Assembly (NCBI GenBank): GCA_964561135.1 | Contig: CAZLOB010000070.1 | Coordinates: forward strand, 3,248 to 67,247 | Direction of reading: 5' to 3' | DNA: 64,000 bases | Origin: an uncultured Elusimicrobia bacterium | GTDB taxonomy: Bacteria > Elusimicrobiota > Endomicrobiia > DTEH01 | Part shown: positions 1,095-17,391 of the stretch, one piece after another | Numbering within the stretch: position 1 is the first letter of the stretch | Layout: the number at the start of each line of letters is the position of its first letter | The notes under the pieces: generated by a model | Seen by the model: only the letters and a program-made list of their open reading frames with translations | What the model was told of the DNA's origin: nothing | The model's database searches: none | Program-made: the position numbers and the translations under genes

Positions 1095-1123
1095 TTGACA
1101 TTTTTGAAATAATGTATTATAAA
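1095..1123 (+). promoter_or_regulatory. sigma70-type promoter (TTGACA, 17-nt spacer, TATAAA)
   Basis: TTGACA at 1095-1100, 17-nt spacer, TATAAA at 1118-1123, about 55 nt upstream of the riboswitch P1 helix. Confidence 0.55.
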
Positions 1124-1180: not shown

Positions 1181-1256
1181 GGCCCGTATAATCTGCAAAA
1201 ATATGGTTTGTAGAGTTTCTACGGGACGAACCGTAAACTTGTCTCTGCTACGGGCC
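1181..1256 (+). promoter_or_regulatory. purine riboswitch aptamer, guanine-type (C at the specificity position)
   Basis: P1 ggcccgta(1181-1188)/tacgggcc(1249-1256). J1/2 tataat. P2 ctgcaaa/tttgtag with loop atatgg. J2/3 agtttctac. P3 gggacga/ttgtctc with loop accgtaaa. C1248 lies directly 5' of P1-3'. Near-identical in the conserved joints and loops to the B. subtilis xpt aptamer. Confidence 0.88.
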
Positions 1257-1339
1257 AGCAGGACACATATAACCCTATAGGCAGGTTGAAAGCCTATTTT
1301 TTTTAATTTGTGTCTGCTGGCCCGTAGAGAAGTTTTTTT
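1248..1339 (+). terminator. riboswitch expression-platform hairpin plus U7 (overlaps the P1 3' strand)
   Basis: ctacgggccagcaggacaca (1248-1267) pairs with tgtgtctgctggcccgtag (1309-1327): 19 bp with one bulge. tct/aga extends the stem. ttttttt at 1333-1339. Confidence 0.6.
1277..1304 (+). terminator. small hairpin plus U8 inside the platform loop (pause site or weak terminator)
   Basis: ataggc(1277-1282)/gcctat(1292-1297), 9-nt loop, followed by a T run to 1304. Confidence 0.3.
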
Positions 1340-1348
1340 GTTCTTGAA

Positions 1349-1412
1349 GGACCAGGGAACATACAGGTTCTGCGCATCTTACGAAAATGTTTGTTCCCTG
1401 GTCTTTTTTTTT
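1349..1412 (+). terminator. third leader hairpin plus U9
   Basis: ggaccagggaaca (1349-1361) pairs with tgttccctggtc (1392-1403), then nine T (1404-1412). The loop is large (~30 nt). It overlaps the ORF-track start at 1387. Confidence 0.45.
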
Positions 1413-1470: not shown

Positions 1471-4400
1471 ATGAAAATTAAAGTTTTATTAGCTTTTGTT
1501 TTATTCTTTGTATCATCTTCCACTTCTTATACTGCTAACTTATTAAACAACGCAGGATTTGACGAACTTCCTGCATTAACAGGATGGACACGTAGTGGAA
1601 CACTTTCAAGCGGTGTTGTAACTTCACCTGTTACAAATGCTCCGTATGCAGCAAGGATTTCTACATCCGCTTCTACAGGAAATAAAGCTTTATATCAAAA
1701 TGTGAATGTGTATGAAGGTAAAAGATATGTTTTATCAGGTTATGTATACTTAGTTGTTGCGCAAGGAGGTGAATCTGTCGGGTTAGGACTGAAACCCGGA
1801 GGAGGTGGTGTTGCATCAAGCTGGTTTCCAGATGTTTCAAATTCAACATCAGCAACTACTCAAGATAGATGGGTATATTTAACACTAAGTACAAAAGTCC
1901 CTTTTGGTGTGTCAACTTATGGTATTAATGTATATCTTCGTACTTCAGGTGCGCTATCAACATGGGCTACTGGATATTTTGACGATATTTCTTTTGTATT
2001 CATAAGTTCGCCACCAGGAAAAGTCACAAATTTTGTTGCTGAGACAGGAAGAGTTGGTGGAGAGATAAATTTATCATGGGTCTGTGCAACTGCTACTATT
2101 GGATATGAAGATGATTTACCGCCAGGATGTTCTTTTTATATACAATACGCAAGTTGGACAGGGGTGAACTTTTCAACATTGACTCTTCCTAACCCACCAC
2201 CAGGTGTGTATCATATATGGATACCAACAGGTCCTGTGGTTTATGGAACAAATTGTTACTACACAATAGCTGGTCTTCAAGAAGGTGTAACTTATTATTT
2301 TAGAATTTGGGTAATAGATAATTCTGGTAACTGGTCCGAGATTTCTGACAGTGCAACAACACAGGCTCAAATTACACCACAACCACCAAGTAATTTAGAT
2401 GTTTTTTCAATATCTTCATCAACAATAAGGCTTAAATGGACACCTTCAAATGCTGTATGGTACAGAATTGAACATTCATCAGTATCTAATTCTGAAAGTT
2501 GGGTTTTTAGGTCAACTGTAGTAGCAAAAGCAGGTGAGTATATAGATGATAATTTAGTTCCGAGTTGTACTTATTGGTATAGAATGTTTGGTATTAATTC
2601 TGCAGGTATTGTGAATTGGTATCAGCCAAGCAATATAGTAAAAACAATAACTTATCCTGCAGCACCAATAAATTTTACTACACAAACAATCTCAGCAACC
2701 TCAATTGTTTGGATATGGGAACCTATTGGTTATGCTGATGGGTTTATAATCTATCAAGCAACATCACCAAATACAGAAGTAGTAAAAATTCCGTTTGGTA
2801 TTAATACTTACGAAGAAACAGGTCTTTCAACAAACACTGCGTATGGTAGGTATATTCGTGCGTTTAACAGTAGTGGTTTCAGTGAATTATCAGCTAAAAC
2901 TACTGTTTATACATTAGCAGCGACACCTGTAAACCTTTCGTTTATTGCTGTACACTATACAAGTGTAACTTTTAGTTGGTCTGCTAATGGTAATCCTTTA
3001 GGAACAAGATATGAAGTGTCACAATCAATTGATAATTTCCAAACTAATTTTTCTACTCCTATTCCTTACACCTATGAAACCGTTGTGACTATAAGTGACC
3101 TTGTTCCTTCAACTACTTATTATTTTAGAGTTAGAGCGTTTAATAATGATGATGTGCCTACAAGTTTTTCTATAGTTATAAACACGACAACACTATCTCT
3201 ACCACCACCAGATATTTGTATCACAGAAGTTTTAGCAAACGATTCTCATTCTACTGAAGGTCCTGGCGAGTTTGTAGAAGTTTACAACCGTGGCTTGGTA
3301 GAAGTAGATTTAGCAGGTATGTTTTTATGTGGCGAAGGTGATACTAACGATAATATTGTTGATTACACAGGCCATAATGATTTAGGTCAGCCTGGGACTA
3401 TACTTTATCCGGGATGGTACGCTCTTATTGTAGACCCTGACTATGACGGATGGTATAATGATTGTATCCAACAGCATGCCGATTTAAATAAACTGATAAT
3501 GTTAACAATACACCAAGATAGTACTTTAGGTAGTAGTAGATTAGCCAACACTTTTGAGTCAGTATGGATAGTTTCAGGAACTGTTGTTTTAACTTCGTTT
3601 ACTTGGGTTTCAGATGCAGGTAATGGTAAATCTTGGGAAAAGATAGATTATTTGGGTCCAGCAATTGACAGGTCTGATTCATGCAACTGGGCTGTGTCAA
3701 CACATCAGTCAGATAATAATTCTTATTGCACACCTGGATTTTTAAACAGTGTATCAGGAAGCGGTCCACCACCGTTACTACCGTCTCAAGAAGATATAAA
3801 CCCCTCAGATGTTGTTATAAACGAATTTTTATATGATGCTGTTTCCACAGATAATGGTAATGAATGGATTGAGTTATATAACAATCTTTCAACAATGAGT
3901 GTAAATCTTGCTGGTTGGAAGATACAAAAATCTACAGGTCCTACATTAGATGTTGCTGTATGGACAGATTTGTTTGTAATAACTTCTGGCAGTATTTCTC
4001 CTAATGGATACTTTTTATGTGCACAATCAACCGCTGCAGTAAAATATCAAGCAGATTTTACATATTCTGACTCAGCAACAATGAACAATTCCGCTCCGTC
4101 TGCAATACGATTGGTTACACCTTCAGGTAAAGAGATCGACAGGGTAGCGTATGGTGGTGCAAGGTCAGACAATTTAGCAGAAGCTGATAAAGCAACGGTT
4201 GGTGCTTCTGTAGGACAAAGTTTGTCAAGATCTCCTGATGGAAAAGATACTAATAATAACTACAACGACTTTATAATGTTATCAAACCCTACACCTACAA
4301 ATTCATCAGGTCCTGACAAGATACCTCCTGCTTCAATTACTGACCTTGCTGCAGAAACAGGACAAAATCCAGGTGAGATTATTCTTAGTTGGACAGCACC

Positions 4401-7400
4401 TGGTGATGATGGTTTATTGTATAACAACACTAAAGAAGCATATTATATTGTAAAATATGCTACTTACCCTGTAAAAGAGTCTACAACCATATGGTGGCAA
4501 CAAGCAGTAGAATATGTTCAACAATGGAATGTTGCATCACAGGGGCTGAAAGAACAAAAAGTTTTACAAGGGTTCATCCCAGGAACAACTTATTATTTTG
4601 CTATAAAAACAGTTGATGATAGTAGGAATGTATCAGATATTGATATCAATGCACAAGATCTTTCAACACAAGCAAAAGCTTATGCACAAGTTGGTTCCAT
4701 TGGTTCTTTAATACGGATAAATGAAGTTGCACCTGACCAAACTTCTACTGCAGGATATGATTGGATTGAATTCTATAACGCGTCGACACAAGCAATAAAT
4801 GTTTTCGGATGGAAGATATATGAAGTGTATACGAGTTCAACAGAACCAATTGAAATAATAGAAGCAAATTGGTTCTTCCCAGCAAACAGTTATCTTGTGT
4901 TAAGATTTGGTCAACAACAAAGAAATATGACAGTGCCACAACAAATATCGCCAAATTGTTACGAACTTTATACAGATAAACCGGGCCTTGCCGCAACTGA
5001 TAACATTATAGTTTTAGCTGATAAAAATGACAATTGGATAGATGTTGTTTGTTATACAGATAGAAGTGGAAGTATATCAAATGCTACTCGGTTCCGACAA
5101 GCATACAACTATGCTGTTTCTATAAATGAATGGTATGGACCCTATGCAGATGAGACAAACGATGATGAAATAGAATACTGTTGTGCATCAACATTGTTTA
5201 TGTCATCAGACAGGTCTTTAGCACGGGATGAATCTTCAACCGACGGAACAAACCCGTCTGTTAACGAATGGTATTTAACTCTAACACTGACATGTGGTGC
5301 ACCTAATTCAGGTATAGACAAAATACCACCAGCCGCTGTTACAACACTACAAGCAACTGCTGGCCCTAACCGTGGACAAGTGAAACTTTCCTGGATATCA
5401 GTTGGTAATGATGATTATACAGGCACAGCAGCAGGATATATGTTAAGATTTAATACATTTCCTATTACAGAAGAAAACTTCTTTCATTCATCAACAAATG
5501 CTGACAGAATCTCAAAAGATAAAAAAACAGATACTATCTATATGAAACCAAAAATAGCTGGAAAAATTGAAACAACTGTCGGTGTATTACCTGTTGGACA
5601 AACTTATTATTTTGCATTAAAAGTATTAGATGAACGTGTTAACTTTTCAGCAATATCTAATGTAGTGTCTTTTGTCCCACCGAATGTTGTTGGGTCTAAT
5701 ATAAGAATAAACGAATTCGCAGTATTAGAATCAACACATACAGGTGGTGATTGGGTTGAGTTGTATAACGCGTCAGAAGATCCTGTTAACATTAAAGGGT
5801 GGACACTGTGGGGTATAAAAGTAGCAGAAACAACTCCGTCTAAGATAAAAAAGTTTCCTGATATTACCTTAGCTCCAAAAGATTATCTTGTGGTAAACTG
5901 TGTCTTGGGGACGGATGAAACAACTTCAAAAGGTGAAAATGGATATTGGGATGTGTACACAAATTATGATATAAAAGGGTTTGACGGTGTTTTATTTTTA
6001 ACTGATGAAGGTTTTAGTAGTGATTATGATAATATAGTAGATTTTGTAGCATATACATCTGGTGGTGTTTCCTCGTGGAAGGATATATGGAATACAGCAT
6101 GTGATTGTAATCAATGGTCACCATATATAAATACTGATGCTGAAGGTGTAAACTACGCAGTAGATTGGTCTTCAGGGCAAACAGGTTTCTCTTTAGGTCG
6201 GGATAGGTTTTCAACTGATAATGACAATATTCTCCATAATGCAAGAGATGATTGGAAATTATTTCGTGTTCCAACAAAAGGATATCAAAATGATGATATC
6301 CCACCTGCTGCTATTACTTATATTGTTGCAACTTATGGTGAAACAGAAGGTTCGATTAAACTTACATGGATAGTACCTGGTGATGATGAGTTCATTGGGG
6401 TAAATTATGGCAAGTATGAGATAAAATATGCTACATTTACAGTTGAAACTTCATCAACAGTATGGTGGCAACAGATTTCTAAAAGAAGTGAATACAGTGG
6501 GGTTGTTGAAGTTAAAATAGGTGTTGATATTTCAACAACGCAACCATATGAAACTGTAAGTTATACAATTACAAGATTGTTCCCAGGGTTAACTTACTAC
6601 TTTGGAATAAGGACATACGATGATATAGGAAATGTTTCTGAGTTAGATTTGTATTTATCAAACAACGAGCCTGTTTTTGCAGTAGCGTTTGATACAATAC
6701 CTGCAAAAGTTCAAAATCTTAATTTCTTTGTAAAAAACAAAACTATAGAATTTAGCTGGGATAAAAATAAAGAACTTGATTTTGACCGTTATGAGATATA
6801 CTGTGATTCAGGGGTGGGATTATTCTTTGTTAGTGCTACTACAAATACTTGGTTTGAACACAAAGGATTAAAAAATGGGCTAACCTACTATTATGAACTT
6901 TATGCAGTAGATATTAAACAAAACAAAAGTTTACCAACTTTTGGTTACACAATACCAAAAATGTCACCTCCGACAAAACTTTCTGCCGAACATTATGGTT
7001 GGTATGTAAATCTTGAATGGCAACATTCAGTAGATTATACTGCTGATAATTTCTTAATGTATAAAATATATCGTAGTAGTTCTCAACACGGTTCTTATGT
7101 AAGTATATCAACTACTACTAATAATTTTTATAAAGATAACAATATTCAAAAAGGCAGTTGTTATTACTATTATATTGTATGTGTAGATAATGATTACATT
7201 GAAAGCGAACTTTCAAACATTGCAGTAGCTGTACCTGATCTTATTTCGCCAAAATTTGTACATATTTCAAAACTAACTTCTCGTGATTTAGCTAAAGATA
7301 TTGCAAAAATTGACATTAAAGTTGTAGATGACAGGTTTGAAGAAGGAGATAGACAAGGTAAATTAGTTTCTTTAGAAGGAAAATATAAAGTTATTGGTTC

Positions 7401-7848
7401 TCAAGAAAAATATAGTGTAAAATTTGATCCAGATTTTATCGCAGGTTTAAAAGAATATACTGGTCAAGCAGAATTTGACTTCACTTTGATAACAATTGGT
7501 GATAAAGGTATAGAATATCAATTTATTGCAAAAGATGAAGTTAATATATCATCTTTTCCAATAGATGGAAGTTGGTATAAAGTTGAACTGCCTAAAGACC
7601 TACCTCAACAAAAGTTTATAACTGACCAAAACCCAGAGGTTGTTTTTGGTAGCAACGTTGAAGAAGTTATAATTTATGACCAATTTGGTAATAAAGTTTG
7701 GGGGAAAACTAAACAGTTTGAAAATCAACTGATAGTATGGAAAGGGAAAGATAAAAATGATAAAAATGTAGAATCAGGTACGTATATATATCAAATTAAA
7801 ACAAAAGATGGGAAACGTAAGTATGGTGTAGTGATTGTAGTGAAGTGA
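1471..7848 (+). CDS. giant secreted surface protein: CBM-like N-domain, FN3-like repeats, four lamin-tail-domain (LTD) modules, C-terminal FlgD-Ig/T9SS-CTD-like tail
   Basis: Track ORF 1387..7848. Start moved to ATG 1471 (MKIKVLLAFVLFFVSSSTSYTA signal-like). LTD motifs: ITEVLAND..EFVEVYN, INEFLYD..EWIELYN, RINEVAP..DWIEFYNAS, RINEFAV..DWVELYNAS. FN3-like YYFRVRAFN and YYFAIKTVDD. Tail ..GTYIYQIKTKDGKRKYGVVIVVK. Confidence 0.85.
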   Translation: MKIKVLLAFVLFFVSSSTSYTANLLNNAGFDELPALTGWTRSGTLSSGVVTSPVTNAPYAARISTSASTGNKALYQNVNVYEGKRYVLSGYVYLVVAQGGESVGLGLKPGGGGVASSWFPDVSNSTSATTQDRWVYLTLSTKVPFGVSTYGINVYLRTSGALSTWATGYFDDISFVFISSPPGKVTNFVAETGRVGGEINLSWVCATATIGYEDDLPPGCSFYIQYASWTGVNFSTLTLPNPPPGVYHIWIPTGPVVYGTNCYYTIAGLQEGVTYYFRIWVIDNSGNWSEISDSATTQAQITPQPPSNLDVFSISSSTIRLKWTPSNAVWYRIEHSSVSNSESWVFRSTVVAKAGEYIDDNLVPSCTYWYRMFGINSAGIVNWYQPSNIVKTITYPAAPINFTTQTISATSIVWIWEPIGYADGFIIYQATSPNTEVVKIPFGINTYEETGLSTNTAYGRYIRAFNSSGFSELSAKTTVYTLAATPVNLSFIAVHYTSVTFSWSANGNPLGTRYEVSQSIDNFQTNFSTPIPYTYETVVTISDLVPSTTYYFRVRAFNNDDVPTSFSIVINTTTLSLPPPDICITEVLANDSHSTEGPGEFVEVYNRGLVEVDLAGMFLCGEGDTNDNIVDYTGHNDLGQPGTILYPGWYALIVDPDYDGWYNDCIQQHADLNKLIMLTIHQDSTLGSSRLANTFESVWIVSGTVVLTSFTWVSDAGNGKSWEKIDYLGPAIDRSDSCNWAVSTHQSDNNSYCTPGFLNSVSGSGPPPLLPSQEDINPSDVVINEFLYDAVSTDNGNEWIELYNNLSTMSVNLAGWKIQKSTGPTLDVAVWTDLFVITSGSISPNGYFLCAQSTAAVKYQADFTYSDSATMNNSAPSAIRLVTPSGKEIDRVAYGGARSDNLAEADKATVGASVGQSLSRSPDGKDTNNNYNDFIMLSNPTPTNSSGPDKIPPASITDLAAETGQNPGEIILSWTAPGDDGLLYNNTKEAYYIVKYATYPVKESTTIWWQQAVEYVQQWNVASQGLKEQKVLQGFIPGTTYYFAIKTVDDSRNVSDIDINAQDLSTQAKAYAQVGSIGSLIRINEVAPDQTSTAGYDWIEFYNASTQAINVFGWKIYEVYTSSTEPIEIIEANWFFPANSYLVLRFGQQQRNMTVPQQISPNCYELYTDKPGLAATDNIIVLADKNDNWIDVVCYTDRSGSISNATRFRQAYNYAVSINEWYGPYADETNDDEIEYCCASTLFMSSDRSLARDESSTDGTNPSVNEWYLTLTLTCGAPNSGIDKIPPAAVTTLQATAGPNRGQVKLSWISVGNDDYTGTAAGYMLRFNTFPITEENFFHSSTNADRISKDKKTDTIYMKPKIAGKIETTVGVLPVGQTYYFALKVLDERVNFSAISNVVSFVPPNVVGSNIRINEFAVLESTHTGGDWVELYNASEDPVNIKGWTLWGIKVAETTPSKIKKFPDITLAPKDYLVVNCVLGTDETTSKGENGYWDVYTNYDIKGFDGVLFLTDEGFSSDYDNIVDFVAYTSGGVSSWKDIWNTACDCNQWSPYINTDAEGVNYAVDWSSGQTGFSLGRDRFSTDNDNILHNARDDWKLFRVPTKGYQNDDIPPAAITYIVATYGETEGSIKLTWIVPGDDEFIGVNYGKYEIKYATFTVETSSTVWWQQISKRSEYSGVVEVKIGVDISTTQPYETVSYTITRLFPGLTYYFGIRTYDDIGNVSELDLYLSNNEPVFAVAFDTIPAKVQNLNFFVKNKTIEFSWDKNKELDFDRYEIYCDSGVGLFFVSATTNTWFEHKGLKNGLTYYYELYAVDIKQNKSLPTFGYTIPKMSPPTKLSAEHYGWYVNLEWQHSVDYTADNFLMYKIYRSSSQHGSYVSISTTTNNFYKDNNIQKGSCYYYYIVCVDNDYIESELSNIAVAVPDLISPKFVHISKLTSRDLAKDIAKIDIKVVDDRFEEGDRQGKLVSLEGKYKVIGSQEKYSVKFDPDFIAGLKEYTGQAEFDFTLITIGDKGIEYQFIAKDEVNISSFPIDGSWYKVELPKDLPQQKFITDQNPEVVFGSNVEEVIIYDQFGNKVWGKTKQFENQLIVWKGKDKNDKNVESGTYIYQIKTKDGKRKYGVVIVVK

Positions 7849-7926: not shown

Positions 7927-8272
7927 TGAACAAAATAAATAATAAAGAATTAAATTTTGAGAATTTAGAAGTGTATCAAAATTACTAAAAATTTTCCTAA
8001 ACAAATACAATTTTCTTTAGCAGACCAATTAAGAAGAGCATCGTTGTCAATTTGTAATAACATTGCAAAAGGATGTGGCAACACACGATAAAAGAAAAGA
8101 ATTGTTTTACAATTACGTTTTAAACTCTGCAAGAGAATATTTCCCTGGTTTAGAAATTACTCTAAAACAAAATTTGATAACTAATAAAATATATTCAGGT
8201 TTAAGGGAGGAATGTTTGATTATTTGTAAAATGTTAAAAAAGTTAATTATCTCATTAGATAAAACTAGAATA
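7927..8272 (+). pseudogene. four-helix-bundle protein (23S rRNA IVS protein / Avd family), frameshifted
   Basis: Three frames together give MNKINNKELNFENLEVYQN / KNFPKQIQFSLADQLRRASLSICNNIAKGCGNT / DKRKELFYNYVLNSAREYFPGLEITLKQNLI..ECLIICKMLKKLIISL. This matches the family pattern LEVWQ..FPK.E.y.L..QLrRAa.SI..NIAEG. At least two frame breaks. Confidence 0.6.
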
Positions 8273-9235
8273 AAAAATTTGTGTTTTTTAATCTTCTTTA
8301 AACTTTTAACTTTTAACTTTCAACTAACAGAGGCAGCTTTTCAAAATACAGCATGGTCTGTTTCTGCAGAGAGTATGGGTGGTGTTGCTGTTGCTTACAG
8401 CAATGAACCGTTTGGCGTTTTTTATAATCCAGTAAATATTGTAAATGTTGAAACTAAAAGTTTACAAATTGCTTATTTAAAACCATATCTTGCTTTAGAA
8501 AATATTGATATAAATTTAAACACCATTGCTTTTGTGTTACCTAAAAAATATGTGTCTTTATCAGCAGCAGTTGGGATGTATAATGTGAACAATTTGTATT
8601 ATGAAACTACAACTATTTTTTCATTTAGTACAATATTGAAAAAATTTTTTGATAACTTACCATATATATCAATTGGGACAAATTTAAAATTTTTAACAAA
8701 AAGATATAAATTTGATGAAGGAATTTTAAACTATCAACCAGAACTAAAAAATAAAAATTCAACAACTGTTTTCTCAACAGATATCGGATTAATTACAAAA
8801 ATGCTAAAAGATAAACTTTCGTTAGGAATAGCAATAAAAGATGTTAACCAACCTAATGTGGCTGTAGTCTCATCTGAAGATATTGTTCCTTTGACAGTAA
8901 GTTTTGGTGGAACATATAATATTGGCGATATAAAAACAATACTATATTTTGAAGATTTTACTGTAGGGTGTGAACTAAGATATAGAAACCAAACATGGGG
9001 AACTACACAATCAAAACTTTTTTATGGGATAGGATTTCAAACTTATTTTAATTTTCATACAATAGCAATTCGTGCAGGAATAAATAAAGAATCTATAAAT
9101 TTTGGTTTTGGATATAATGGTATAAAACTTTCGCAAAAAATTCTTATGAATATTCAATACGGATTCGGTTTGTCAACAGTTGTTTTTGACAATTCTGCTG
9201 GTACACATAGGATCTCTTTTGAGATACAACTCTAA
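8231..9235 (+). CDS. predicted outer-membrane beta-barrel protein (FadL/PorV-like N-terminal motif)
   Basis: Track ORF 8063..9235, whose first ~56 codons are the four-helix-bundle remnant. ATG 8231 gives a signal-like MLKKLIISLDKTRIKNLCFLIFFKLLTFNFQLTEA. AESMGGVAVAYSNEPFGVFYNPVNI motif and alternating beta-strand pattern. Confidence 0.6.
   Translation: MLKKLIISLDKTRIKNLCFLIFFKLLTFNFQLTEAAFQNTAWSVSAESMGGVAVAYSNEPFGVFYNPVNIVNVETKSLQIAYLKPYLALENIDINLNTIAFVLPKKYVSLSAAVGMYNVNNLYYETTTIFSFSTILKKFFDNLPYISIGTNLKFLTKRYKFDEGILNYQPELKNKNSTTVFSTDIGLITKMLKDKLSLGIAIKDVNQPNVAVVSSEDIVPLTVSFGGTYNIGDIKTILYFEDFTVGCELRYRNQTWGTTQSKLFYGIGFQTYFNFHTIAIRAGINKESINFGFGYNGIKLSQKILMNIQYGFGLSTVVFDNSAGTHRISFEIQL
8296..8325 (-). 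repeat. AAGTTNA-type heptad array, inverted relative to 7859..7908
   Basis: ctttaaacttttaacttttaactttcaact is the reverse complement of agttgaaagttaaaagttaaaagtttaaag. Confidence 0.75.
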
Positions 9236-9335
9236 CAGAAGTCGATATTTGAATGTTGGCTTTTGGAGTGTTGTTATTAAACGGCTGCTCAAAAATAAAT
9301 TGTAAAGGCAGAAAATAAAAAATAATAAAGAAAGG

Positions 9336-10736
9336 TTGTATTATGTGATGTATACAATCGTATTTATTGTATTTTTAATACCTTCTTTTTTTTCATCTTT
9401 ACTATTATATTCACAGATAAATGTTTATTTTACTGACCCGTATAACGATGTCCCATCAATAAGTTTTCTTTCAACGGCGAAAAAACCTATTGATTTTGCA
9501 TTAAAAGATTTTATTGATTCTGTATCACCACAAACAACAATGTATGTTTGCATTTATGAAGTGAATAATACTACAATAACTACTGCGATAGATACCGCAG
9601 TGAACCGCAGGGTAAAAATTTATGCTATTTTTGGCAAAGATGTTTCAACATCTGTATTCAAAAGTAGTTTTGAATATAAAAAGATTGGTTTTTCATCACA
9701 AATTATGCATAATAAATTTGTTGTAGTAAAAAGTTCAAAGGTATGGACTGGTTCTTATAACTTCACAGTTTCAGCTACATATGACCAAGATAATTTTGCA
9801 TTAGAAATTTTTTCTAAAGAACTTGCAGAAATTTATGAAAAAGCATTTCTGTATATGTGGGATCATGGTAATGATATAACCATATCCACAAGGATTGCTG
9901 AGTTTAATAATAAATCTGTTGATTTTATTGACGGGACAAAAATTACTGTTTATTTTAATCCGTATTCACAAAATCCACAGTTAAAAAATGTTTTAATAGA
10001 CAACTGGTACGATGTTTTTGAAGAAAAACCAAAAATAAAAAATTTATATTTTACAGTTGCATGGTTTACTTTGGAAGATGTTAGTGATATCATTAAAATG
10101 TTAAGAGATAAAAATGTAGATATTTTTGGTATCATTGATGATGATAGCCAAAATTTTAGTATGTATCAAAAATTAAGAAATTATGGTATATCAATATATT
10201 TTGATGCAAGAAGAACTTTTTATGGTGAAGGGCTTATGCATCACAAGTACTGTGTTGTAGATCCGTTTACAAAAAATGCAAAAGTTATCTGTGGTTCTGC
10301 AAACTGGTCTGATGCAGCATTAACTTCAGAAAGTAATAAAAATTATGAAAACCTTCTTGTGATAGAATCACAAAAAATTGCAGAAGTGTTTTATAAAGAA
10401 TTTTTAAGGTTATACAACAAGACTGTTTCACAACAAGTTTCTACTTCTTTATCCGATGAGATGATTGAAAATATAATTTTTTATCCAAATCCTGTAAAAG
10501 AAAAACTTAATATAAAGTTTAAACCAAACTTCAGTGTTAAAGAAATAAAACTTTTAATAGTTTCGTTATACGGTGTAAAAATTTATGAAAAAAATTTAGA
10601 TTTTGTTTCTGGGATAGAAAACAAAATTGAAGTTGAGTTACCAAAAGATATTTCTTATGGATTATACAATATCATTCTTCGTGTTAAAGGTTTTAATGTT
10701 CAAAAAGATTATGTTAAGAAGATAGTTGTGAAGTGA
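9336..10736 (+). CDS. secreted phospholipase-D-superfamily (two HKD-like motifs, Nuc-like) protein with CTD-like tail
   Basis: MHNKFVVVKSSKVWTGSYNFT and HHKYCVVDP..VICGSANWSDAAL. N-terminal hydrophobic segment. C-terminal IIFYPNPVKEKLNIKF...YVKKIVVK. The start could be ATG 9348. Confidence 0.75.
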   Translation: MYYVMYTIVFIVFLIPSFFSSLLLYSQINVYFTDPYNDVPSISFLSTAKKPIDFALKDFIDSVSPQTTMYVCIYEVNNTTITTAIDTAVNRRVKIYAIFGKDVSTSVFKSSFEYKKIGFSSQIMHNKFVVVKSSKVWTGSYNFTVSATYDQDNFALEIFSKELAEIYEKAFLYMWDHGNDITISTRIAEFNNKSVDFIDGTKITVYFNPYSQNPQLKNVLIDNWYDVFEEKPKIKNLYFTVAWFTLEDVSDIIKMLRDKNVDIFGIIDDDSQNFSMYQKLRNYGISIYFDARRTFYGEGLMHHKYCVVDPFTKNAKVICGSANWSDAALTSESNKNYENLLVIESQKIAEVFYKEFLRLYNKTVSQQVSTSLSDEMIENIIFYPNPVKEKLNIKFKPNFSVKEIKLLIVSLYGVKIYEKNLDFVSGIENKIEVELPKDISYGLYNIILRVKGFNVQKDYVKKIVVK

Positions 10737-11716
10737 GTAGGTATAAAAACAACAGTGGACAGCAGGTTGTGAAAATAAAAAAACAAAAAAATATTTTCGT
10801 TATTCTATTTAAGTATTGTAGAAACTTTTTGTTATTTATTACACACTGTTTTCATTTTGTACTTTTTTCCTACATGCTACTTACTATATACTTTCTTGTT
10901 TTCTTTTCACCTGCTTATGGTTTTCTCTTTGAGCCATACTTCCTTGCATATTCAGCAGAAGAGACAGTTTATATGCAAGCATTAAAAGTTTTGTCTGAAG
11001 GAAAAGAATCAGCTGGGAACAACCCTGCAGGTTGCGCTCTTGAAAATAAAAAATCTGTTTCTTTTGGATTCACAAGTTTGAATTTAAAAGATAATTTATC
11101 AAGTATAAAATTGTTTTTGCCCAAAAAGATTGCTAATTTAGTGATATCTTTGAAACATGCAAACTTTGGTGAGACAGAGTTTGTTTCAGAAAATTTTGAT
11201 GTAAAAAAAGATAGATTGTATTCTTTAATTTTAAATACATCTTTAGGTAAAGAAATGTTTATACCAGGACTGTTTTTAGGGATTGATTTAAATTTTGGTA
11301 ATATGAAACTTGATGAAACAATACAAACATTTGGTACTTTGTGTGGAACAAGATATATGATAAATTTTGGTTCGATAGAACTTCATCTTGGATCAATTTT
11401 TGGTTCATATTTTGCTAAAAATGAGAATCTATTTTTTTATGCATTTGGTATAAAATATTATCTTCCTGAATACAAAAGTTTTTTATCTTTAGCTTATAAC
11501 AAAAATGTTTATGAATTTTTAACTATAACATTTGAAATGGACTTGATAAAAAATTTCTTGTTAATTATTGGATATGAAGCTTTTAGCCGACAATTAAATG
11601 TCAGCTATTCTTTAGGTGGGGAATTTAAGATAAAAAATTTTGAGTTCATTTTATCAACAAGATATAATATAAATTTATATCCTACACTAAGTTTATCAAT
11701 AAGTTATTCATTATGA
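10733..11716 (+). CDS. predicted outer-membrane beta-barrel protein
   Basis: ORF track. Internal ATG 10874 gives MLLTIYFLVFFSPAYG signal-like start. NNPAGCAL motif. Amphipathic strand pattern to the C-terminus (LSLSISYSL). Start uncertain. Confidence 0.5.
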   Translation: MSRYKNNSGQQVVKIKKQKNIFVILFKYCRNFLLFITHCFHFVLFSYMLLTIYFLVFFSPAYGFLFEPYFLAYSAEETVYMQALKVLSEGKESAGNNPAGCALENKKSVSFGFTSLNLKDNLSSIKLFLPKKIANLVISLKHANFGETEFVSENFDVKKDRLYSLILNTSLGKEMFIPGLFLGIDLNFGNMKLDETIQTFGTLCGTRYMINFGSIELHLGSIFGSYFAKNENLFFYAFGIKYYLPEYKSFLSLAYNKNVYEFLTITFEMDLIKNFLLIIGYEAFSRQLNVSYSLGGEFKIKNFEFILSTRYNINLYPTLSLSISYSL

Positions 11717-12735
11717 ATAAAAAATTCTTTTTTATTTTATTTTTTTTAATTTTCCCATTTATCGTTCACTCTTTACCACCATTAATAATAACAGAAGTTG
11801 CACCAGGTGAAGCATCAACAAAAGATTGGATTGAAATTTTTGTTTCTTCTTCAGGTAATTATAACGGATATAAAATCTACAGTGGTTATCCAAAAAGAGT
11901 AATAAAAATCTTACCTTCAAGAGAATATAAAAGAGGTGATATCATAGTAATCATGATGAACACTTCTTTAGAAGATGCGCAAACAAAACAAAATTATTGG
12001 ATATTTTATTCTACTGATACAACAGGGCTTTATGATTCTGAGGGTTTTGTGTATATTACTACTCCTTATGACAACTGGATCGATGCAGTTGGTTGGTCAA
12101 ACAGGGATGGTTCTATAGCAAAAGATGCAATAGACGCTTATAACGAAATGAAACAAAACAATATGTGGAAAGAAGGTCCTCAAGTCGCTGACGGGAATAA
12201 CGATGTTGAAGTACAGAACTCTTTGGTTGACTGGTCATTAGGTGCAAAAACAGATGCTGCGTCTATACAAAGACGGAAAGATTTTTTTGGCTTACCAATG
12301 GATGCTGACTCAATCTATGATTGGTATTATTCAAAAATAGCAACTTTTGGATACGGATATAAAGAAGTTGTTTCAGAAACACAAAAAATAGTTGAAGTTG
12401 ATAAAAACACAAATCCGTTTTGTCCTGAGGATATAAACAATAGTTTTGTGAAAATAAATTTTAATATAGAAGATTTTGATGCAAAAAAAACTATAGTTAT
12501 TTACGATATCACAGGCAAAGAAATTATAAAACTATTAGATAAAGATAGATTACCCAATGGCGACCTTTCAACATATTCTTCAGTGAGGGCAGGAAGTATA
12601 ACTTGGGATGGTAGAGATTCATCCTCTAAACGTGTTCCAACTGGTGTATATATTGTATATTTTGAAGCGTATAATCCTACAAATGGTAAAAGATACATTA
12701 GTAAAGATGTTGTTATTGTAGGGAGGAAGTGGTGA
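11713..12735 (+). CDS. secreted lamin-tail-domain protein with FlgD-Ig/CTD-like tail
   Basis: Signal peptide MNKKFFFILFFLIFPFIVHS. LIITEVAPGEASTKDWIEIFVSS and NWIDAVGWSNRDGS match LTD modules 3 and 4 of the giant protein. Tail TIVIYDITGKEI..GVYIVYFEA..DVVIVGRKW. Confidence 0.75.
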   Translation: MNKKFFFILFFLIFPFIVHSLPPLIITEVAPGEASTKDWIEIFVSSSGNYNGYKIYSGYPKRVIKILPSREYKRGDIIVIMMNTSLEDAQTKQNYWIFYSTDTTGLYDSEGFVYITTPYDNWIDAVGWSNRDGSIAKDAIDAYNEMKQNNMWKEGPQVADGNNDVEVQNSLVDWSLGAKTDAASIQRRKDFFGLPMDADSIYDWYYSKIATFGYGYKEVVSETQKIVEVDKNTNPFCPEDINNSFVKINFNIEDFDAKKTIVIYDITGKEIIKLLDKDRLPNGDLSTYSSVRAGSITWDGRDSSSKRVPTGVYIVYFEAYNPTNGKRYISKDVVIVGRKW

Positions 12736-12743
12736 TAGTGATG

Positions 12744-12770
12744 TTAAAAGTGAAAAAGTTGAAAGTTTTA
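12744..12770 (+). repeat. AAGTTNA-type heptad/octad repeat
   Basis: ttaaaagtgaaaaagttgaaagtttta immediately after the stop codon at 12735. Confidence 0.6.
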
Positions 12771-12781
12771 ACAATAGAAAA

Positions 12782-12905
12782 TGTAAGACAAGGATTTATC
12801 CTTGCAATAATTTAAGTTTTTGTGTCGTAATTAGTATGGATTGAATCGTCAGTTACAAAAAACTTTGCTCTGGTCCTTTATGCAAACTTAAAAGTTTGTC
12901 CTACA
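12782..12905. repeat. TGTAGGGCA-family hairpin element (degenerate copy, inverted termini)
   Basis: tgtaagacaagg-attt-atccttgc (12782-12805) and gcaaac-ttaaaa-gtttgtcctaca (12882-12905). Termini TGTAAGACA / TGTCCTACA are inverted repeats. Confidence 0.6.
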
Positions 12906-12920
12906 TTTTTAGAAGAAAAA

Positions 12921-14375
12921 ATGAACTTTAAACTAATTTATATCTACATATTTATACATTTACTTATTCACACATTTACTACTTATCTTTATCCTTTATT
13001 TGAAGAAAAAGATCTTTTTGCAAACACTGCAGCGTTATGTAATGCGTATACAGCTGCTGATGACAATGTTGTTTGTGTATATTATAACCCAGCAGGTATT
13101 TTCAATATACCAAAAGGTGGTTTCTATTTTTCAAATACAAAATTTTATAGTATTGACGAACTTGCATCAAATACAATATCTGTTTCTTTAGATGTTAAAC
13201 ATTTTGGCAAAGTTGGTTTTTTGTATAATATTTTTGGTTTTGATTTGTATAAAGAAAACTTATTAAAATTTGTTTATGCGAACAGTATTTTAAGAAAGAT
13301 TTCGTTTGGTATAGGAATTAATTCTTTATCTGTGAATATAAAAAACTATGGTTCTAAAAGTTTCCTAAGTATTGATTTAGGTGTTTTAGCAGAAGTTACA
13401 AGAAGTTTTCTTTTAGGATTTTATATAAAAAATTTTGATATACCAAAAGTTGCTGAAGATGAAATTGTTACACATACACTTGTTACAGGAGCGAAAATTG
13501 CTCCTTTAAAAGATGTGTCAACATATATTGATGTTGTAAAAAAAACAGAACAAGATGTTTTTGCAAGAATTGGCGAAGAAATAAAACTTAATATAATAGA
13601 TAGTTTGATAACAATATTTCGTTGTGGTGTTGAAATAGCAACAAAGGTCAAACCTGCAAAATATGCGGTTGGTTTCGGGTTAGGATATAAAATAGGTTCT
13701 TCAGAAATTATAATTGATTATTCTTATTTGTTACACACAATTTTAGGTAGCCAATATCTTGTTTCTTTAAGCATAAGTTTTGGTAAAAAAGAAAAAGAGT
13801 TTTTTGAAGAAATAAAACCTACAGGACAAAAAAGAAAAGCAGCGGTCAAAAAAATAGAACTTCAACCAAAATCTATAAATATTAATACTGCAACTATAGA
13901 AGAACTTGCAGAACTGCCTGGTATTGGTCCATCAACTGCACAAAAAATTGTTGAATATAGACAAAAGATAGGAAAATTTATTTCTGTTGAACAGCTGCTT
14001 GAGGTACCTCGTATCGGTACTCTTACGCTACAAAGAATAAAACCATATATAACTGTTGAAGTAGAAGAAAAACAAATACAAGAAGTAAAACCAGAAGTTG
14101 AAAAGAAACAAAAAGAAGAACAGTTGTTTATTCCACCACTTGATCTACCATCACAAGAAAAAATAGAAGTAAAAGAAGAAAAACAAAAGTTTAATTTGAA
14201 TACTATAACAGAGGAAGAGTTAATTAATTTAGGTTTCTCTTCAACTGCTGCAAAAAATGTTATAAGATATAGAATAAAAGTTGGTAAATTTAAATCAGTT
14301 GATGAACTATATAAAATACCATTTGTTGAGAAATCGTTGGTTGATAAACTTAAAGAAAAGTTTTATGTTGAATAA
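12921..14375 (+). CDS. outer-membrane beta-barrel (FadL/PorV-like motif) fused to two ComEA-type helix-hairpin-helix DNA-binding modules
   Basis: N-terminal half: NAYTAADDNVVCVYYNPAGIFNI plus strand pattern. C-terminal half: NINTATIEELAELPGIGPSTAQKIVEYRQKIGKFISVEQLLEVPRIG and LNTITEEELINLGFSSTAAKNVIRYRIKVGKFKSVDELYKIP, separated by K/E-rich linkers. Confidence 0.75.
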   Translation: MNFKLIYIYIFIHLLIHTFTTYLYPLFEEKDLFANTAALCNAYTAADDNVVCVYYNPAGIFNIPKGGFYFSNTKFYSIDELASNTISVSLDVKHFGKVGFLYNIFGFDLYKENLLKFVYANSILRKISFGIGINSLSVNIKNYGSKSFLSIDLGVLAEVTRSFLLGFYIKNFDIPKVAEDEIVTHTLVTGAKIAPLKDVSTYIDVVKKTEQDVFARIGEEIKLNIIDSLITIFRCGVEIATKVKPAKYAVGFGLGYKIGSSEIIIDYSYLLHTILGSQYLVSLSISFGKKEKEFFEEIKPTGQKRKAAVKKIELQPKSININTATIEELAELPGIGPSTAQKIVEYRQKIGKFISVEQLLEVPRIGTLTLQRIKPYITVEVEEKQIQEVKPEVEKKQKEEQLFIPPLDLPSQEKIEVKEEKQKFNLNTITEEELINLGFSSTAAKNVIRYRIKVGKFKSVDELYKIPFVEKSLVDKLKEKFYVE

Positions 14376-14378
14376 ATA

Positions 14379-16598
14379 ATGGTTGTAATATTATTCTTAA
14401 TTTCAATTTTTTGTTTTCAAAACTTATTCTGTGTAGAATTCAAACTTAATTCTTCAACACATACAACAGAAAAATTTTTGTCTGAAGAAGAACAAACATT
14501 AGAAGAATTATATGAAGAAATTGATAAAATAGAAGAAGAAACAGTTAGTGTTTATTTTCAAGAAGAGATACATTTATATCAAGAAGATGAAGGTTTTTTA
14601 GAATCATTACAGCAAAACCCGTTGGATTTGAACACTGCAACTTATCTTCAACTTAAATCTCTTCCTGGTATAACTGATGAGTTAGCACGGAAAATTGTCC
14701 GTTATAGAAGGTTAAATCCGTTTAAATCAAAATCTGAACTTAAAAAAATTGTTGATGCAGAGGTTTATAATAAAATATCACCTTTTGTTATTGTAGATAA
14801 AGTAAAAAAAGCAGCACAACTTAACGGACAAGTAAGAATAAGATTTTATCCTGAAGAAAAGACAGAAATTAAAACATATTATCAACCTAAAGAAAAGTTT
14901 GAACAACCATATTATTTTTACAATAGGACACAACTTTCTTATGGTGATAAACTTTCGTTAGGATATGTTTTTTTACATAAACCTAATGAAAACGTCCCTT
15001 CTTTAGAAAGTTTCAGTTATCTACTTCGTAAATGGTGGGTAAGGTTAAACTCAATAGGTCTGTTCGATAAAATAATTTTTGGTAATTACAAAGCAGGGTT
15101 TGGTTATGGTATGGTGTTTCACGAGAACGCTGCTGTATCAAATTTAGTAGGTTCTGTTAAACCGAAGATGCGTGGGTTAAGAGAAGATAAAAGTACTGCG
15201 GATAATGCATATCTTTATGGTTTGGGTTTTGAAAGTAATATAGGTAATCTTGAATATTCCATTTTTTATTCGCAGAAAGATTTGATCACAAAAACAACTG
15301 TGTTTACAGAAGTTGTTCAAACAGATGAAGAAGAGCAAACAATTGTTTCTTCCTATACAATTGACGATTTAATTGACATTCGTAACGACTATGTTGAATA
15401 TGATAAATATTTGTTAGATTATGATGTAAACATAGAAACATCAACAATTAACAAACTGCCAAAAAGAAAAGTTCAAGAACAACTTGTAGGAATAAATTTT
15501 TTGTTCCCAATAGATGTATTTAAAATAGGTTTTTGTGGGTATTATGCAAGATATGACAACCCTTTTGATCCTGATAAAACAAAAGTTTCTGGCTATGATC
15601 TTGTAGACAAGTATTCAGAACGATGGAGGTATGTTTATCGCGGGGATAACTTAGTAGTAGGAAGTTTATATTTTGAGTTTCCTTTAGATAAACTTATATT
15701 TTTTAGTGAATTAGCACAAAGTAAAGCATATTTTTCACAACAGTCAACTTCTACATTTTCTTCACAACTTGGTAGTGGAGTAAACCTGGGTATTCTTTTA
15801 TTTTTAAGTCGAACAAAGTTTTATTTGTTATACACATATCTTGAACCAACTTTTTATTCACCATTAGGTATACCAATAAAAATTTATGATTATCCTAACA
15901 GTCAACGAGGTATAAAAATTGGTAATAGTTATAAATTCAAAAATGGTGAGATAAACTTTTCATATGGTACAGCTGAATTATTTAAAGGTATCTGGAGTGG
16001 ACATTGGAGTTCTGAACAACCACGGTTCCCATCAAGATATAACGAAATTTTTTTTGAAACAAAATATAAAGTTTTTAAAGATATTGAACTTTATTTCAGA
16101 ACAATAGATGATTTAAGAGAAAGATACATAGACTTAAAAACTTATGGTCTTTCATTAGAACAGCAACTTGTTCAAACACAACAGTTAAGGATAAAAAATA
16201 GGTATCAAGTGTCAACAAGTATATTAAAAGACACAATATTAAAGATAAGATATGACCATCAATGGCAAAAGTTTATAGATTACGGAAAATCATATTATGG
16301 TGAACAACTTTGTGCTGAACTAAAATATAAATTTTGGGGTTTTACAATAAACAGCAGATTCTGTATTTTTAATTCTGATGAACAAGTATATTTAAGTTAT
16401 CTTGAGCCAAAATGGTATAACTTGTATATGTTAGAAACTGAAGAAAATGCTGGGGGAGATAAATTTTATTTTACTTTTTCATACAAAATTTCAAAAAATA
16501 AAATTTTGTGGCTCAGGTATAGATATAAGTTTTATACAACAAAAGTTGTTGATCCGACAGATACTGAATTTAGAATACAAATAGATTATGGGTTTTGA
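14379..16598 (+). CDS. ComEA-type HhH module fused to a large predicted outer-membrane beta-barrel
   Basis: Signal-like N-terminus, acidic stretch, LDLNTATYLQLKSLPGITDELARKIVRYRRLNPFKSKSELKKIV, then ~600 aa of Y/G/F-rich alternating sequence ending ..EFRIQIDYGF (terminal aromatic residue). Confidence 0.7.
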   Translation: MVVILFLISIFCFQNLFCVEFKLNSSTHTTEKFLSEEEQTLEELYEEIDKIEEETVSVYFQEEIHLYQEDEGFLESLQQNPLDLNTATYLQLKSLPGITDELARKIVRYRRLNPFKSKSELKKIVDAEVYNKISPFVIVDKVKKAAQLNGQVRIRFYPEEKTEIKTYYQPKEKFEQPYYFYNRTQLSYGDKLSLGYVFLHKPNENVPSLESFSYLLRKWWVRLNSIGLFDKIIFGNYKAGFGYGMVFHENAAVSNLVGSVKPKMRGLREDKSTADNAYLYGLGFESNIGNLEYSIFYSQKDLITKTTVFTEVVQTDEEEQTIVSSYTIDDLIDIRNDYVEYDKYLLDYDVNIETSTINKLPKRKVQEQLVGINFLFPIDVFKIGFCGYYARYDNPFDPDKTKVSGYDLVDKYSERWRYVYRGDNLVVGSLYFEFPLDKLIFFSELAQSKAYFSQQSTSTFSSQLGSGVNLGILLFLSRTKFYLLYTYLEPTFYSPLGIPIKIYDYPNSQRGIKIGNSYKFKNGEINFSYGTAELFKGIWSGHWSSEQPRFPSRYNEIFFETKYKVFKDIELYFRTIDDLRERYIDLKTYGLSLEQQLVQTQQLRIKNRYQVSTSILKDTILKIRYDHQWQKFIDYGKSYYGEQLCAELKYKFWGFTINSRFCIFNSDEQVYLSYLEPKWYNLYMLETEENAGGDKFYFTFSYKISKNKILWLRYRYKFYTTKVVDPTDTEFRIQIDYGF

Positions 16599-16746
16599 TT
16601 TTCTTGTTTTTTTAAAGCTGCGGAGGGGGTGTGCCCAATATAGTAATAATAAGTTGTGTTTAAACACTTATACTTTATTTTATATTCGGAAAATTGTTTG
16701 TAAAATGTCAGAATAAAAATTTTTTAAAAATTTTTTAAAAATTTTG

Positions 16747-16775
16747 TTGACAAAACACAAAATTTTGTTCTATAT
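16747..16775 (+). promoter_or_regulatory. sigma70-type promoter for the pilin gene with a palindromic spacer
   Basis: TTGACA 16747-16752, 17-nt spacer containing the palindrome acaaaattttgt (16757-16768), ctatat 16770-16775. Phased A/T tracts upstream (16716-16746). Confidence 0.45.
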
Positions 16776-16844
16776 ATATTATTAGGGCAGGGGTGGTTAT
16801 TTATACATTCCCCAAAACTATGCCCTGAAAGGAGGTGAATAAAA

Positions 16845-17339: not shown

Positions 17340-17349
17340 TCATTTAAGA

Positions 17350-17391
17350 TAGGCAGCTTGGTGGTTAGCCAGGCTCCCTATTCTCGTTTTT
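17350..17391 (+). terminator. rho-independent terminator after the pilin gene
   Basis: taggcagcttgg / ccaggctcccta stem (one mismatch, one G-U), loop tggttag, T-rich tail ttctcgttttt. Confidence 0.5.

Follow-up and report, generated by a model that had tools for sequence, protein, structure and literature searches.

In the textbook view, aptamers of the guanine class serve to turn purine metabolism OFF. We describe here an aptamer of this class that lies in a 64-kb stretch of an Elusimicrobiota (Endomicrobiia) contig, hereafter the window, in the leader of a gene encoding a giant secreted protein with lamin-tail domains (LTD) and fibronectin type III (fn3) repeats. In this leader, the aptamer is followed by a long hairpin (hairpin A) that carries a mini hairpin in its loop, and then by a further hairpin (hairpin B) upstream of the gene. 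The guanine pocket appears to be wired as a pbuE-like ON switch ahead of the giant surface protein and of a cluster comprising a secreted PLD-type nuclease domain, ComEA-type proteins and pilus genes, and the gene context suggests a free purine base as a cue for extracellular nucleic acid. To our knowledge, riboswitches have barely been studied in the phylum Elusimicrobiota.

Among the closest described systems is the adenine-responsive ON switch pbuE (ydhL) of Bacillus subtilis, which works by strand invasion and in which a P4/L4 hairpin lies in the terminator loop and a 3′ hexa-U tract causes pausing and improves switching (PMC7707468). The leader described here shares with pbuE a purine three-way-junction aptamer and a terminator whose 5′ arm consists of the P1 3′ strand and part of P3, and it is predicted to share the blocking of strand invasion by a ligand-locked P1 and the ligand-independent loop hairpin with a 3′ U-run (for pbuE, PMC7707468). 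It differs from pbuE in having C74 and not U74, a P1 with six G-C pairs out of eight, a longer terminator stem, a pseudoknot-like loop motif, a second strong hairpin followed by nine uridines (U9) and an Elusimicrobiota host, and in controlling a giant surface protein, whereas pbuE encodes a purine efflux pump.

With the guanine-I switches (xpt, purE, yxjA/nupG; RF00167) the window shares the fold, the residues U22/U51/C74, the J2/3 segment GUUUCUAC and the L2/L3 motifs (PMC6847200). Guanine-I switches normally lower the expression of genes for purine synthesis, salvage or transport (PMC9295807). In contrast, neither this gene context nor OFF logic was found here, since the downstream gene encodes an LTD/fn3 surface protein and the platform reads ON; moreover, the window carries G73, one extra nucleotide in J3/1, and P2 and P3 helices that each exceed the Rfam consensus by one pair. 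Other members of the purine-aptamer family, namely guanine-II, xanthine-II and 2′-deoxyguanosine (2′-dG)-III from Paenibacillus and others, are predicted to act as genetic ON switches whose terminator overlaps the aptamer (PMC9295807). These have J2/3 insertions or a changed position 51, occur in Firmicutes and control salvage or degradation enzymes, whereas J2/3 is standard here. ON logic is thus uncommon in the purine family but not new. A first-pass annotation of the window had called it rare for guanine-type aptamers, which holds in the sense of uncommon and not in the sense of unknown, guanine-II being predicted ON (PMC9295807).

Two tandem terminators are also known from the Bc1 cyclic diguanylate (c-di-GMP)-I riboswitch of the Bacillus cereus group, in which the effect of ligand on the first terminator is masked by the second, which remains folded (PMC11218506). 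As in Bc1, a long platform contains two Rho-independent terminators placed tens of nucleotides (nt) apart, of which only the upstream one is predicted to respond to the aptamer. Unlike in Bc1, the aptamer belongs to another class with another ligand, and a conserved alternative helix could link the second terminator, which predates the aptamer fusion, to the switch. Like attenuators of the trp-leader type, the leader has segments that can pair with either neighbour (1:2, 2:3 and 3:4), the last pairing being the terminator; here, however, a leader peptide is lacking, the 2:3 helix is short and the first decision would fall to an aptamer that binds a ligand. The first-pass annotation had also regarded a leader with three stacked terminator-like elements as non-standard, for which the pbuE P4/L4 hairpin with its hexa-U tract (PMC7707468) and the tandem terminators of Bc1 (PMC11218506) provide precedents. 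The novelty lies in how these features are combined: in a member of the Elusimicrobiota, a pbuE-like platform bears a guanine pocket and precedes the gene for a giant LTD/fn3 protein as well as a DNA-binding, nuclease and pilus cluster, the platform is an older leader put to new use, and a second, conserved terminator possibly has a link to the switch.

A guanine-type aptamer in the leader

Positions 1164-1270 of the window matched the Rfam Purine family RF00167 with 54.1 bits (cut-off 37) over the full model (1-102), and the aptamers of five related lineages scored 54.8-58.5 bits, with covariation in P1, P2 and P3. The P1 strands are GGCCCGUA and UACGGGCC; six of the eight pairs are G-C and the junction end is A-U (GUA/UAC). 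The motifs for a predicted L2/L3 contact are present, AAUAUGG at 1200-1206 and ACCGUAAAC at 1230-1238 (reference AUAUGG and CCGUAAA). When aligned with the Rfam consensus, the sequence (UAUAAU, GUUUCUAC and C at position 1248) has the first-shell residues U22, U51 and C74 in place, together with U47; U22/U51/C74 is the guanine-class signature as defined previously (PMC6847200, PMC9295807). Position 73, however, is G instead of A and J3/1 reads U-G-C, one nucleotide more than in guanine-I, which has A73 and a J3/1 of two. In the related lineages, which we designate like other matched contigs by L-numbers, J3/1 is U-A-C (L122) or C-G-C (L134 and L137). Given that the A73C change in xpt costs only about two-fold in affinity (PMC6847200), guanine-type specificity is still to be expected.

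Several other identities were considered and rejected. The adenine class needs U74, and the residue is C1248 in the window and C in all relatives. The J3/1 insertion and the nuclease-like context raised 2′-dG-II, whose hallmarks are C51, a two-nucleotide J3/1 insertion and a P1 that ends in a G-C pair at the junction (PMC6847200); here U51 is kept, the junction pair is A-U and J3/1 has only one extra nucleotide. Guanine-II is characterized by a one-nucleotide J2/3 insertion plus xanthine-II-like core changes (PMC9295807), and the J2/3 of the window is the standard 8-nt segment with no insertion. An extension of P1 by pairing of GUUUUGUU (1171-1178) with AGCAGGAC (1257-1264) appeared in nascent folds and was also discarded, as judged by eye it is not kept in L104 or L117, and it is displaced by distal hairpin A.

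Sequence variation was seen at other loci. L122 (3075-3181), which is close to L117, has CCAUAAA for CCGUAAA in L3 and UAC for UGC in J3/1 and still scores 58.1 bits; position 73 thus varies between A and G within the group. An unrelated Bacillales aptamer from Priestia taiwanensis (L025, about 4486-4545) has UGCUAC in J3/1 and also G73, so that G73 is not confined to the Endomicrobiia group. C1222G, found only in a short contig with a near-identical copy (L009), affects C53 in J2/3 and possibly reflects a sequencing error. According to Rfam, the aptamer at 1181-1256 is the sole purine aptamer of the window, and the genes purS, purL and purQ for de novo purine synthesis (43790-47383) carry none.

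P1 and hairpin A compete for the same strand

The P1 5′ strand GGCCCGTA (1181-1188) recurs as an exact direct repeat at 1319-1326. This second copy belongs to a P1 mimic, GGCCCGUAG (1319-1327), in the 3′ arm of hairpin A, whose 5′ arm (1244-1267) takes in the last three nucleotides of P3, C74 and the P1 3′ strand. Pairing of 1248-1267 (CTACGGGCCAGCAGGACACA) with 1309-1327 (TGTGTCTGCTGGCCCGTAG) gives 14 perfect pairs, one bulged G and five further pairs, and the minimum-energy fold adds three more (1244-1246 with 1328-1330), which brings the stem end to two nucleotides before a run of seven uridines (U7). Both the duplication and the long helix reaching U7 had been recognized in the first-pass annotation, which placed all helices and U-runs at their correct positions. 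Hairpin A has a folding energy of -44.5 to -45.5 kcal/mol. The 262-nt leader folds at -101.8 kcal/mol, compared with -61.6 +/- 4.5 kcal/mol for shuffled sequences (z = -8.85; 0 of 200 as good), and when the entire window was scanned for hairpins bordering on T-runs, hairpins A (-44.5 kcal/mol) and B (-26.1 kcal/mol) were by far the strongest, the next reaching about -22 kcal/mol. A simple terminator scan with a loop limit of 3-8 nt called no terminator in the leader, because the loops of all three elements exceed this limit.

We then compared folds of 1130-1339 with and without a forced aptamer. The free fold contained the complete hairpin A (-72.6 kcal/mol). With the aptamer forced (-51.7 kcal/mol), the distal 10 base pairs (bp) of hairpin A and the mini hairpin persisted, while the mimic and the residues next to it (1319-1332, 14 nt) were unpaired before U7. 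Restricted to its distal 10 bp, the long helix leaves no terminator at U7 in this state. Hairpin A uses the P1 3′ strand (shared positions 1248-1256), and therefore P1 and hairpin A are mutually exclusive, as had been proposed. Mutual exclusion of P1 and a terminator implies ON logic, which is the best reading of these models and agrees with the first-pass annotation; no alternative pairing or antiterminator restoring OFF logic was found in the folds. Pairing of the 5′ A-rich leader (1134-1149) with the U7 region was considered and rejected, since relatives do not conserve it.

The mini hairpin in the loop of hairpin A is weak (-5.9 to -6.3 kcal/mol) and is formed in both switch states. All eight leaders with hairpin A conserve its loop, (A/G)GGUUGAAA, along with the ACCC that precedes it, the whole motif (1268-1300 in the window) reading ACCC-N4-GGC-(A/G)GGUUGAAA-GCC. 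These sequences could form a compact H-type pseudoknot (AACCC/GGGUU; in the window, AACCC 1271-1275 with AGGUU 1283-1287). Across eight lineages, there was one compensatory column in the mini hairpin and one in the pseudoknot, C-G to U-A in L134. The uninterrupted run of eight uridines (U8) is found only in the species of the window, relatives having AU-rich linkers at this place. The position and form of the element match the P4/L4 nucleator of pbuE and, given also its weak fold and its presence in both states, it is better read by analogy as a nucleator or toehold and pause element than as a terminator. A view of the three elements as equivalent terminators does not fit this low stability and the absence of U8 from all relatives.

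The competition is conserved in related lineages

Relatives were found by a genome-wide pattern scan, by a metagenome scan and through orthologues of the upstream DUF192 gene. The genome-wide scan yielded 98 stretches with two real-looking aptamers, one in an uncultured Elusimicrobia metagenome-assembled genome (L104) and the other in the unrelated Priestia locus; the metagenome scan yielded 13 stretches, two of them relevant (L109, from the same species, and L117). Ten metagenome contigs carry near-identical copies, and some of the DUF192-orthologue loci are named Endomicrobia or Endomicrobiia by NCBI. The gene order HAD hydrolase, DUF192, promoter, leader and giant fn3/LTD/Kelch protein is conserved.

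Sequence comparison showed covariation in both hairpins. In hairpin A, 8 of 18 pair columns changed on both sides and 91% of the cells were paired, against 26-42% with slid partners; in hairpin B, with eight lineages aligned, 5 of 16 pair columns changed on both sides, 93% of the cells were paired and the T-run was invariant. Conservation of the structures in relatives excludes chance. Regarding the shared strand, all eight P1 pairs and all eight hairpin A pairs were kept in the five lineages counted, and the sixth aptamer-bearing lineage, L137, has by eye the same three strands as L134. In these two lineages the shared strand is UACGGACC in place of UACGGGCC, a G to A change, and the P1 5′ strand and the mimic are both GGUCCGUA, with C to U in both competitors. 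One substitution in the contested strand is hence matched in both of its competitors, and such three-strand covariation is what functional competition predicts. The proposed exclusion of P1 and the terminator is in this way conserved in six lineages.

The leaders of the relatives differ in their composition (Table 1), and offer a rare view of riboswitch assembly: with the aptamer, without it, or with hairpin B alone. A U-rich tail 3′ of hairpin A is present in six out of six aptamer-bearing leaders and in none of the three aptamer-less leaders that keep hairpin A, that is, the U-tract occurs only with the aptamer. The aptamer-less leaders (L126, L127 and L129) indicate that hairpins A and B form a conserved leader able to exist without an aptamer. 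Judged by this comparison, the platform is demonstrably an older leader RNA that has been reused, and the aptamer-independent hairpin B is ancestral. A neighbour-joining tree of DUF192 was too weak to decide between a single gain of the aptamer and several losses.

No Rfam family was found for hairpins A and B at E<=10 on 1050-1480 or at E<=1 on five relatives, where only chance hairpin-shaped matches (e.g. microRNAs) were obtained. A reading of the apical GCCAGGAAGGC hairpin of some relatives as similar to signal recognition particle RNA was discarded, as it had no Rfam support and the hairpin is missing from the window. Within the window, no further copies of hairpin B or of the loop motif were found.

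Hairpin B and a predicted alternative helix

Hairpin B has a folding energy of -29.3 kcal/mol in the window and of about -30 to -43 kcal/mol across lineages, and each of the 10 lineages has it with a U-run (U5-U9); in L131 no other leader element is present. In the first-pass annotation it was an independent hairpin just before the start codon. It does form in both states, but the term understates its nature, as together with the long helix it is part of a conserved two-hairpin leader; likewise, it does lie 5′ of the gene, but the likely start codon is 59 nt after U9. In the models hairpin B looks like a constitutive terminator between promoter and gene and, being so, it needs relief by something. 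We assume that relief comes mainly from an aptamer-independent, most likely trans-acting, factor. A population variant, C1375T, present in four near-identical metagenome contigs, maps to the inner loop of hairpin B.

The mimic, when it is not engaged in hairpin A, is predicted to pair with the base of the hairpin B 5′ arm around a small stem, H2b. H2b with the U-tract as its loop was seen in all aptamer-bearing lineages. The RNAalifold consensus of five lineages predicted this fold unprompted, the mimic GGYCC pairing with the hairpin B base GRRCC around H2b; four H2b pairs were compensatory, and the outer helix was conserved without covariation. The alternative hairpin was also the minimum-energy fold of the nascent RNA in five out of five lineages (-8.5 to -17.7 kcal/mol), and forcing the alternative helix stripped hairpin B of its bottom 5 bp beside the U-tract. 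Once the 3′ arm is made, full hairpin B beats the alternative helix by 3.3-8.1 kcal/mol (7.5 kcal/mol in the window). On these models, the alternative helix could couple hairpin B to the aptamer.

A probable kinetic ON switch and its rivals

P1/terminator exclusion, a U-tract after the stem and a ligand-independent candidate nucleator in the loop with a U-run, at which pausing is predicted, are the features of a pbuE-type platform, and all of them were found in this leader. We consider it probable, though far from settled, that the leader is a kinetically controlled, pbuE-type transcriptional ON riboswitch built on a guanine-class aptamer. Transcription would start near 1130 and the aptamer would be the first element to fold. 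Next, distal hairpin A and the mini hairpin (1257-1318) would be made in either state and might act as a nucleator, and the U-rich run at 1297-1304 may cause a pause that gives time for ligand binding. With no ligand, the emerging mimic would displace the P1 5′ strand and zip hairpin A to 1330, and the resulting 22-bp stem two nucleotides before U7 would stop transcription. With guanine (or hypoxanthine or xanthine) bound, P1 and C74 would be locked, the mimic would stay single-stranded and the polymerase would pass U7. Hairpin B and U9 would then constitute a second gate, an older attenuator common to the aptamer-less relatives, whose relief would be aptamer-independent, most likely through a trans factor, and may be helped by pairing of the freed mimic with the hairpin B base. 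The output would be the giant LTD/fn3 surface protein and probably also the DNA-binding, nuclease and pilus genes that follow, and the free purine base would signal nucleic acid availability.

A number of observations weigh against this explanation. The aptamer state lies about 21 kcal/mol above hairpin A in energy, and across such a gap only a kinetic switch could work. Six of the P1 pairs are G-C, and in pbuE, making P1 rich in G-C led to constitutive termination (PMC7707468). G73 and the extra J3/1 nucleotide leave the ligand specificity not certain. Hairpin B forms fully with or without the forced aptamer and could mask the switch, as the second terminator does in Bc1. The U-tract after hairpin A doubles as the H2b loop in every aptamer-bearing lineage and may have another role, and in L134 this tract is interrupted. 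The aptamer-bearing lineages may be one clade, in which case the link between aptamer and U-tail may rest on few independent events. Finally, both ligand binding and termination at U7 are predictions, and so is intrinsic termination of this kind in Elusimicrobiota.

The predicted pairing between mimic and hairpin B admits a bolder design, which we put forward tentatively, in which one aptamer controls both terminators, T2 (hairpin A) and T3 (hairpin B), through alternating helices: 0:1 is P1, 1:2 is hairpin A, 2:3 is the freed mimic with the hairpin B base, nucleated by H2b, and 3:4 is hairpin B. With ligand, 0:1 and 2:3 would form and both terminators would be weakened; without it, 1:2 and 3:4 would form and T3 would catch the transcripts escaping T2. 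The unprompted consensus with its compensatory H2b pairs, the nascent minimum-energy folds and the loss of the bottom of hairpin B argue for such a relay, and so does the likeness between the 5′ arms of hairpins A and B, which allows 2:3 pairing, with significance reached in L126 (-18.9 kcal/mol, 0 of 300 shuffles) and in L134 (p ~0.04). However, the 2:3 outer helix has just 4-6 bp that do not covary, branch migration toward the more stable full hairpin B can displace it, and whole-arm 2:3 pairing in the window does not surpass that of shuffles (p ~0.19). Aptamer-less L127 and L129 show no clear 2:3 pairing, which means that hairpin B must also have another relief route. If true, the relay would be a compact natural design with one sensor and two terminators, and would interest those who study co-transcriptional folding or design synthetic riboswitches. 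A joint reading, to which we likewise give only limited credence, takes hairpins A and B as an undescribed cis-regulatory leader RNA, an attenuator of the giant surface-protein genes of Endomicrobiia, whose first hairpin bears a pseudoknot-like sensor motif and to whose 5′ arm a guanine aptamer was fused in some lineages, giving a two-input, two-terminator relay. If so, DNA-scavenging surface machinery would be coupled to purine availability, and the locus would exemplify in nature how an existing expression platform can gain an aptamer or lose it (L126).

Two further readings give hairpin B or hairpin A another role. The leader might be a stand-alone small RNA gene ending at hairpin B, with the giant gene having its own promoter and guanine setting only the length of the product, short (~1339) or long (~1412). 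Hairpin B with its U-run does resemble an efficient terminator and is universal in the family, the spacing between it and the giant gene ranges from 59 to ~390 nt, a pair of small open reading frames (ORFs; one DUF2204) intervenes in L137, and the L131 transcript would be little beyond hairpin B. We regard this as unlikely, as the leader is absent from both loci where no giant gene follows DUF192 (L130 and L133) and is thus tied to the giant gene; in the window, in addition, U9 and the start codon are so close that only 59 nt separate them, no conserved promoter was seen by eye in between and the element is single-copy. It is even harder to credit that the leader is a net OFF switch, in which hairpin A would be a functional sensor or antitermination RNA needed to pass hairpin B and guanine-stabilised P1 would break it. 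This idea draws on the conservation of hairpin A and of the motif ACCC...GGC-RGGUUGAAA-GCC in leaders with neither the aptamer nor the U-tract after the hairpin, from which a function of hairpin A besides termination would follow. Yet hairpin A retains its distal helix and loop motif in the aptamer-forced fold, L131 has hairpin B without hairpin A, and the U-rich tail, for which a net OFF model has no need, occurs exactly where the aptamer is present. The pbuE-type ON switch accordingly stays the explanation that we favour.

Table 1. Features of the leader and its locus in the window and in related lineages
Feature	Locus and position	Strand	Sequence or composition
Putative sigma-70-type promoter	window 1095-1123	+	TTGACA 1095-1100, 17 nt, TATAAA 1118-1123
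Purine-riboswitch aptamer, guanine type	window 1181-1256	+	Rfam RF00167
Aptamer helices	window	+	P1 1181-1188/1249-1256; P2 1192-1199/1207-1214; P3 1223-1229/1239-1245
Aptamer junctions	window	+	J2/3 GUUUCUAC 1215-1222 (standard, 8 nt); J3/1 UGC 1246-1248; C1248 = C74
Hairpin A (T2), predicted riboswitch-controlled terminator	window 1244-1339	+	5′ arm 1244-1267; 3′ arm 1309-1330; U7 1333-1339
Mini hairpin and U8	window 1271-1304	+	AUAGGC 1277-1282/GCCUAU 1292-1297; conserved loop AGGUUGAAA; U8 1297-1304
Alternative ON-state hairpin, predicted	window 1319-1353	+	mimic GGCC 1319-1322 with hairpin B 5′ arm base 1349-1353, around H2b
H2b	window 1327-1331/1341-1345	+	GAGAA/UUCUU; loop is the U7 tract
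H2b stem	L104, L117		GAGAGU/ACUCUC
H2b stem	L134		GGAGA/UUUCC
H2b stem	L137		GUAAGU/ACUUAC
Hairpin B (T3), terminator/attenuator form	window 1347-1412	+	GGACCAGGGAACA 1349-1361/TGTTCCCTGGTC 1392-1403; U9 1404-1412
Giant secreted protein, 2125 amino acids (aa)	window 1471-7848	+	signal peptide; Pfam: four LTD, fn3 repeats, CHU_C-type C-terminal sorting domain
Genes 3′ of the giant gene	window 8063-18170	+	weak PorV-like protein; PLD-type domain; two ComEA-type HHH_3 proteins; pilin; prepilin peptidase
Leader: aptamer, hairpin A, hairpin B	window, L104, L117, L122, L134, L137		
Leader: hairpins A and B, no aptamer	L126 2926-3600; L127 2893-3450; L129 2893-3460		
Leader: hairpin B only	L131 1244-1620		right after the promoter
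Leader RNA absent	L130, L133		DUF192, then radical-SAM gene in place of a giant gene
Tail after hairpin A, aptamer present	window		UUUUUUU
Tail after hairpin A, aptamer present	L104		UUUGUUUUU
Tail after hairpin A, aptamer present	L117, L122		UUUUUCU
Tail after hairpin A, aptamer present	L134		UUUAGUUUG
Tail after hairpin A, aptamer present	L137		UUGUUUUGUU
Tail after hairpin A, no aptamer	L126		AUAAUCUAUAG
Tail after hairpin A, no aptamer	L127		AAAGAUAAUUA
Tail after hairpin A, no aptamer	L129		UCGGAAAAAUU

Promoter and surrounding genes

The putative promoter lies 58 nt upstream of P1, and the transcription start is expected near 1130. A regular expression, TTGACA-N15-19-TATA[TA]A, matched at the same place in 8 of 9 lineages; in the remaining one, L129, TTGACA was placed by hand. 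About 30 nt 5′ of the -35 box, a palindrome-like TTTTTCTGACGAAAAAA (1047-1063, + strand) is conserved, all lineages seen by eye carrying it as TTTYCYGACGRNAAAA, and may be a transcription-factor site or an UP-like element. Promoter candidates between U9 and the start codon, or over the 3′ arm of hairpin B, were rejected, as by eye the TTGTTC-N-TATATA-like matches were inconsistent across lineages.

The likely start codon of the giant gene is ATG 1471, which opens a signal peptide (MKIK...). Gene callers chose ATG 1387 in several metagenomes, giving 2153 aa; ATG 1471 is likelier because ATG 1387 sits within the 3′ arm of hairpin B and the in-frame extension from it is not retained in the relative L117. 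Among the genes that follow (Table 1), the protein with the PLD-type domain resembles the nuclease NucT (under the NCBIfam cut-off) and has a secretion tail, and comEC is located farther downstream (32486-34666). The PLD, ComEA, pilus and ComEC gene set suggests extracellular DNA binding, uptake or degradation.

In the whole window, nearly all ORFs of at least 120 aa are on the + strand, and in a scan for hairpins followed by T-runs, gene ends lacked strong canonical terminators, this leader holding the only two strong hits. Two further features of related loci were noted. In L137, the two small ORFs between the leader and the giant fn3 gene span 3433-4051, one of them being DUF2204/DUF6036 (nucleotidyltransferase-like). 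In L130 (1-1642), a neighbouring locus in a related genome, a gene has a called product of 16,324 residues and runs off the end of the locus.

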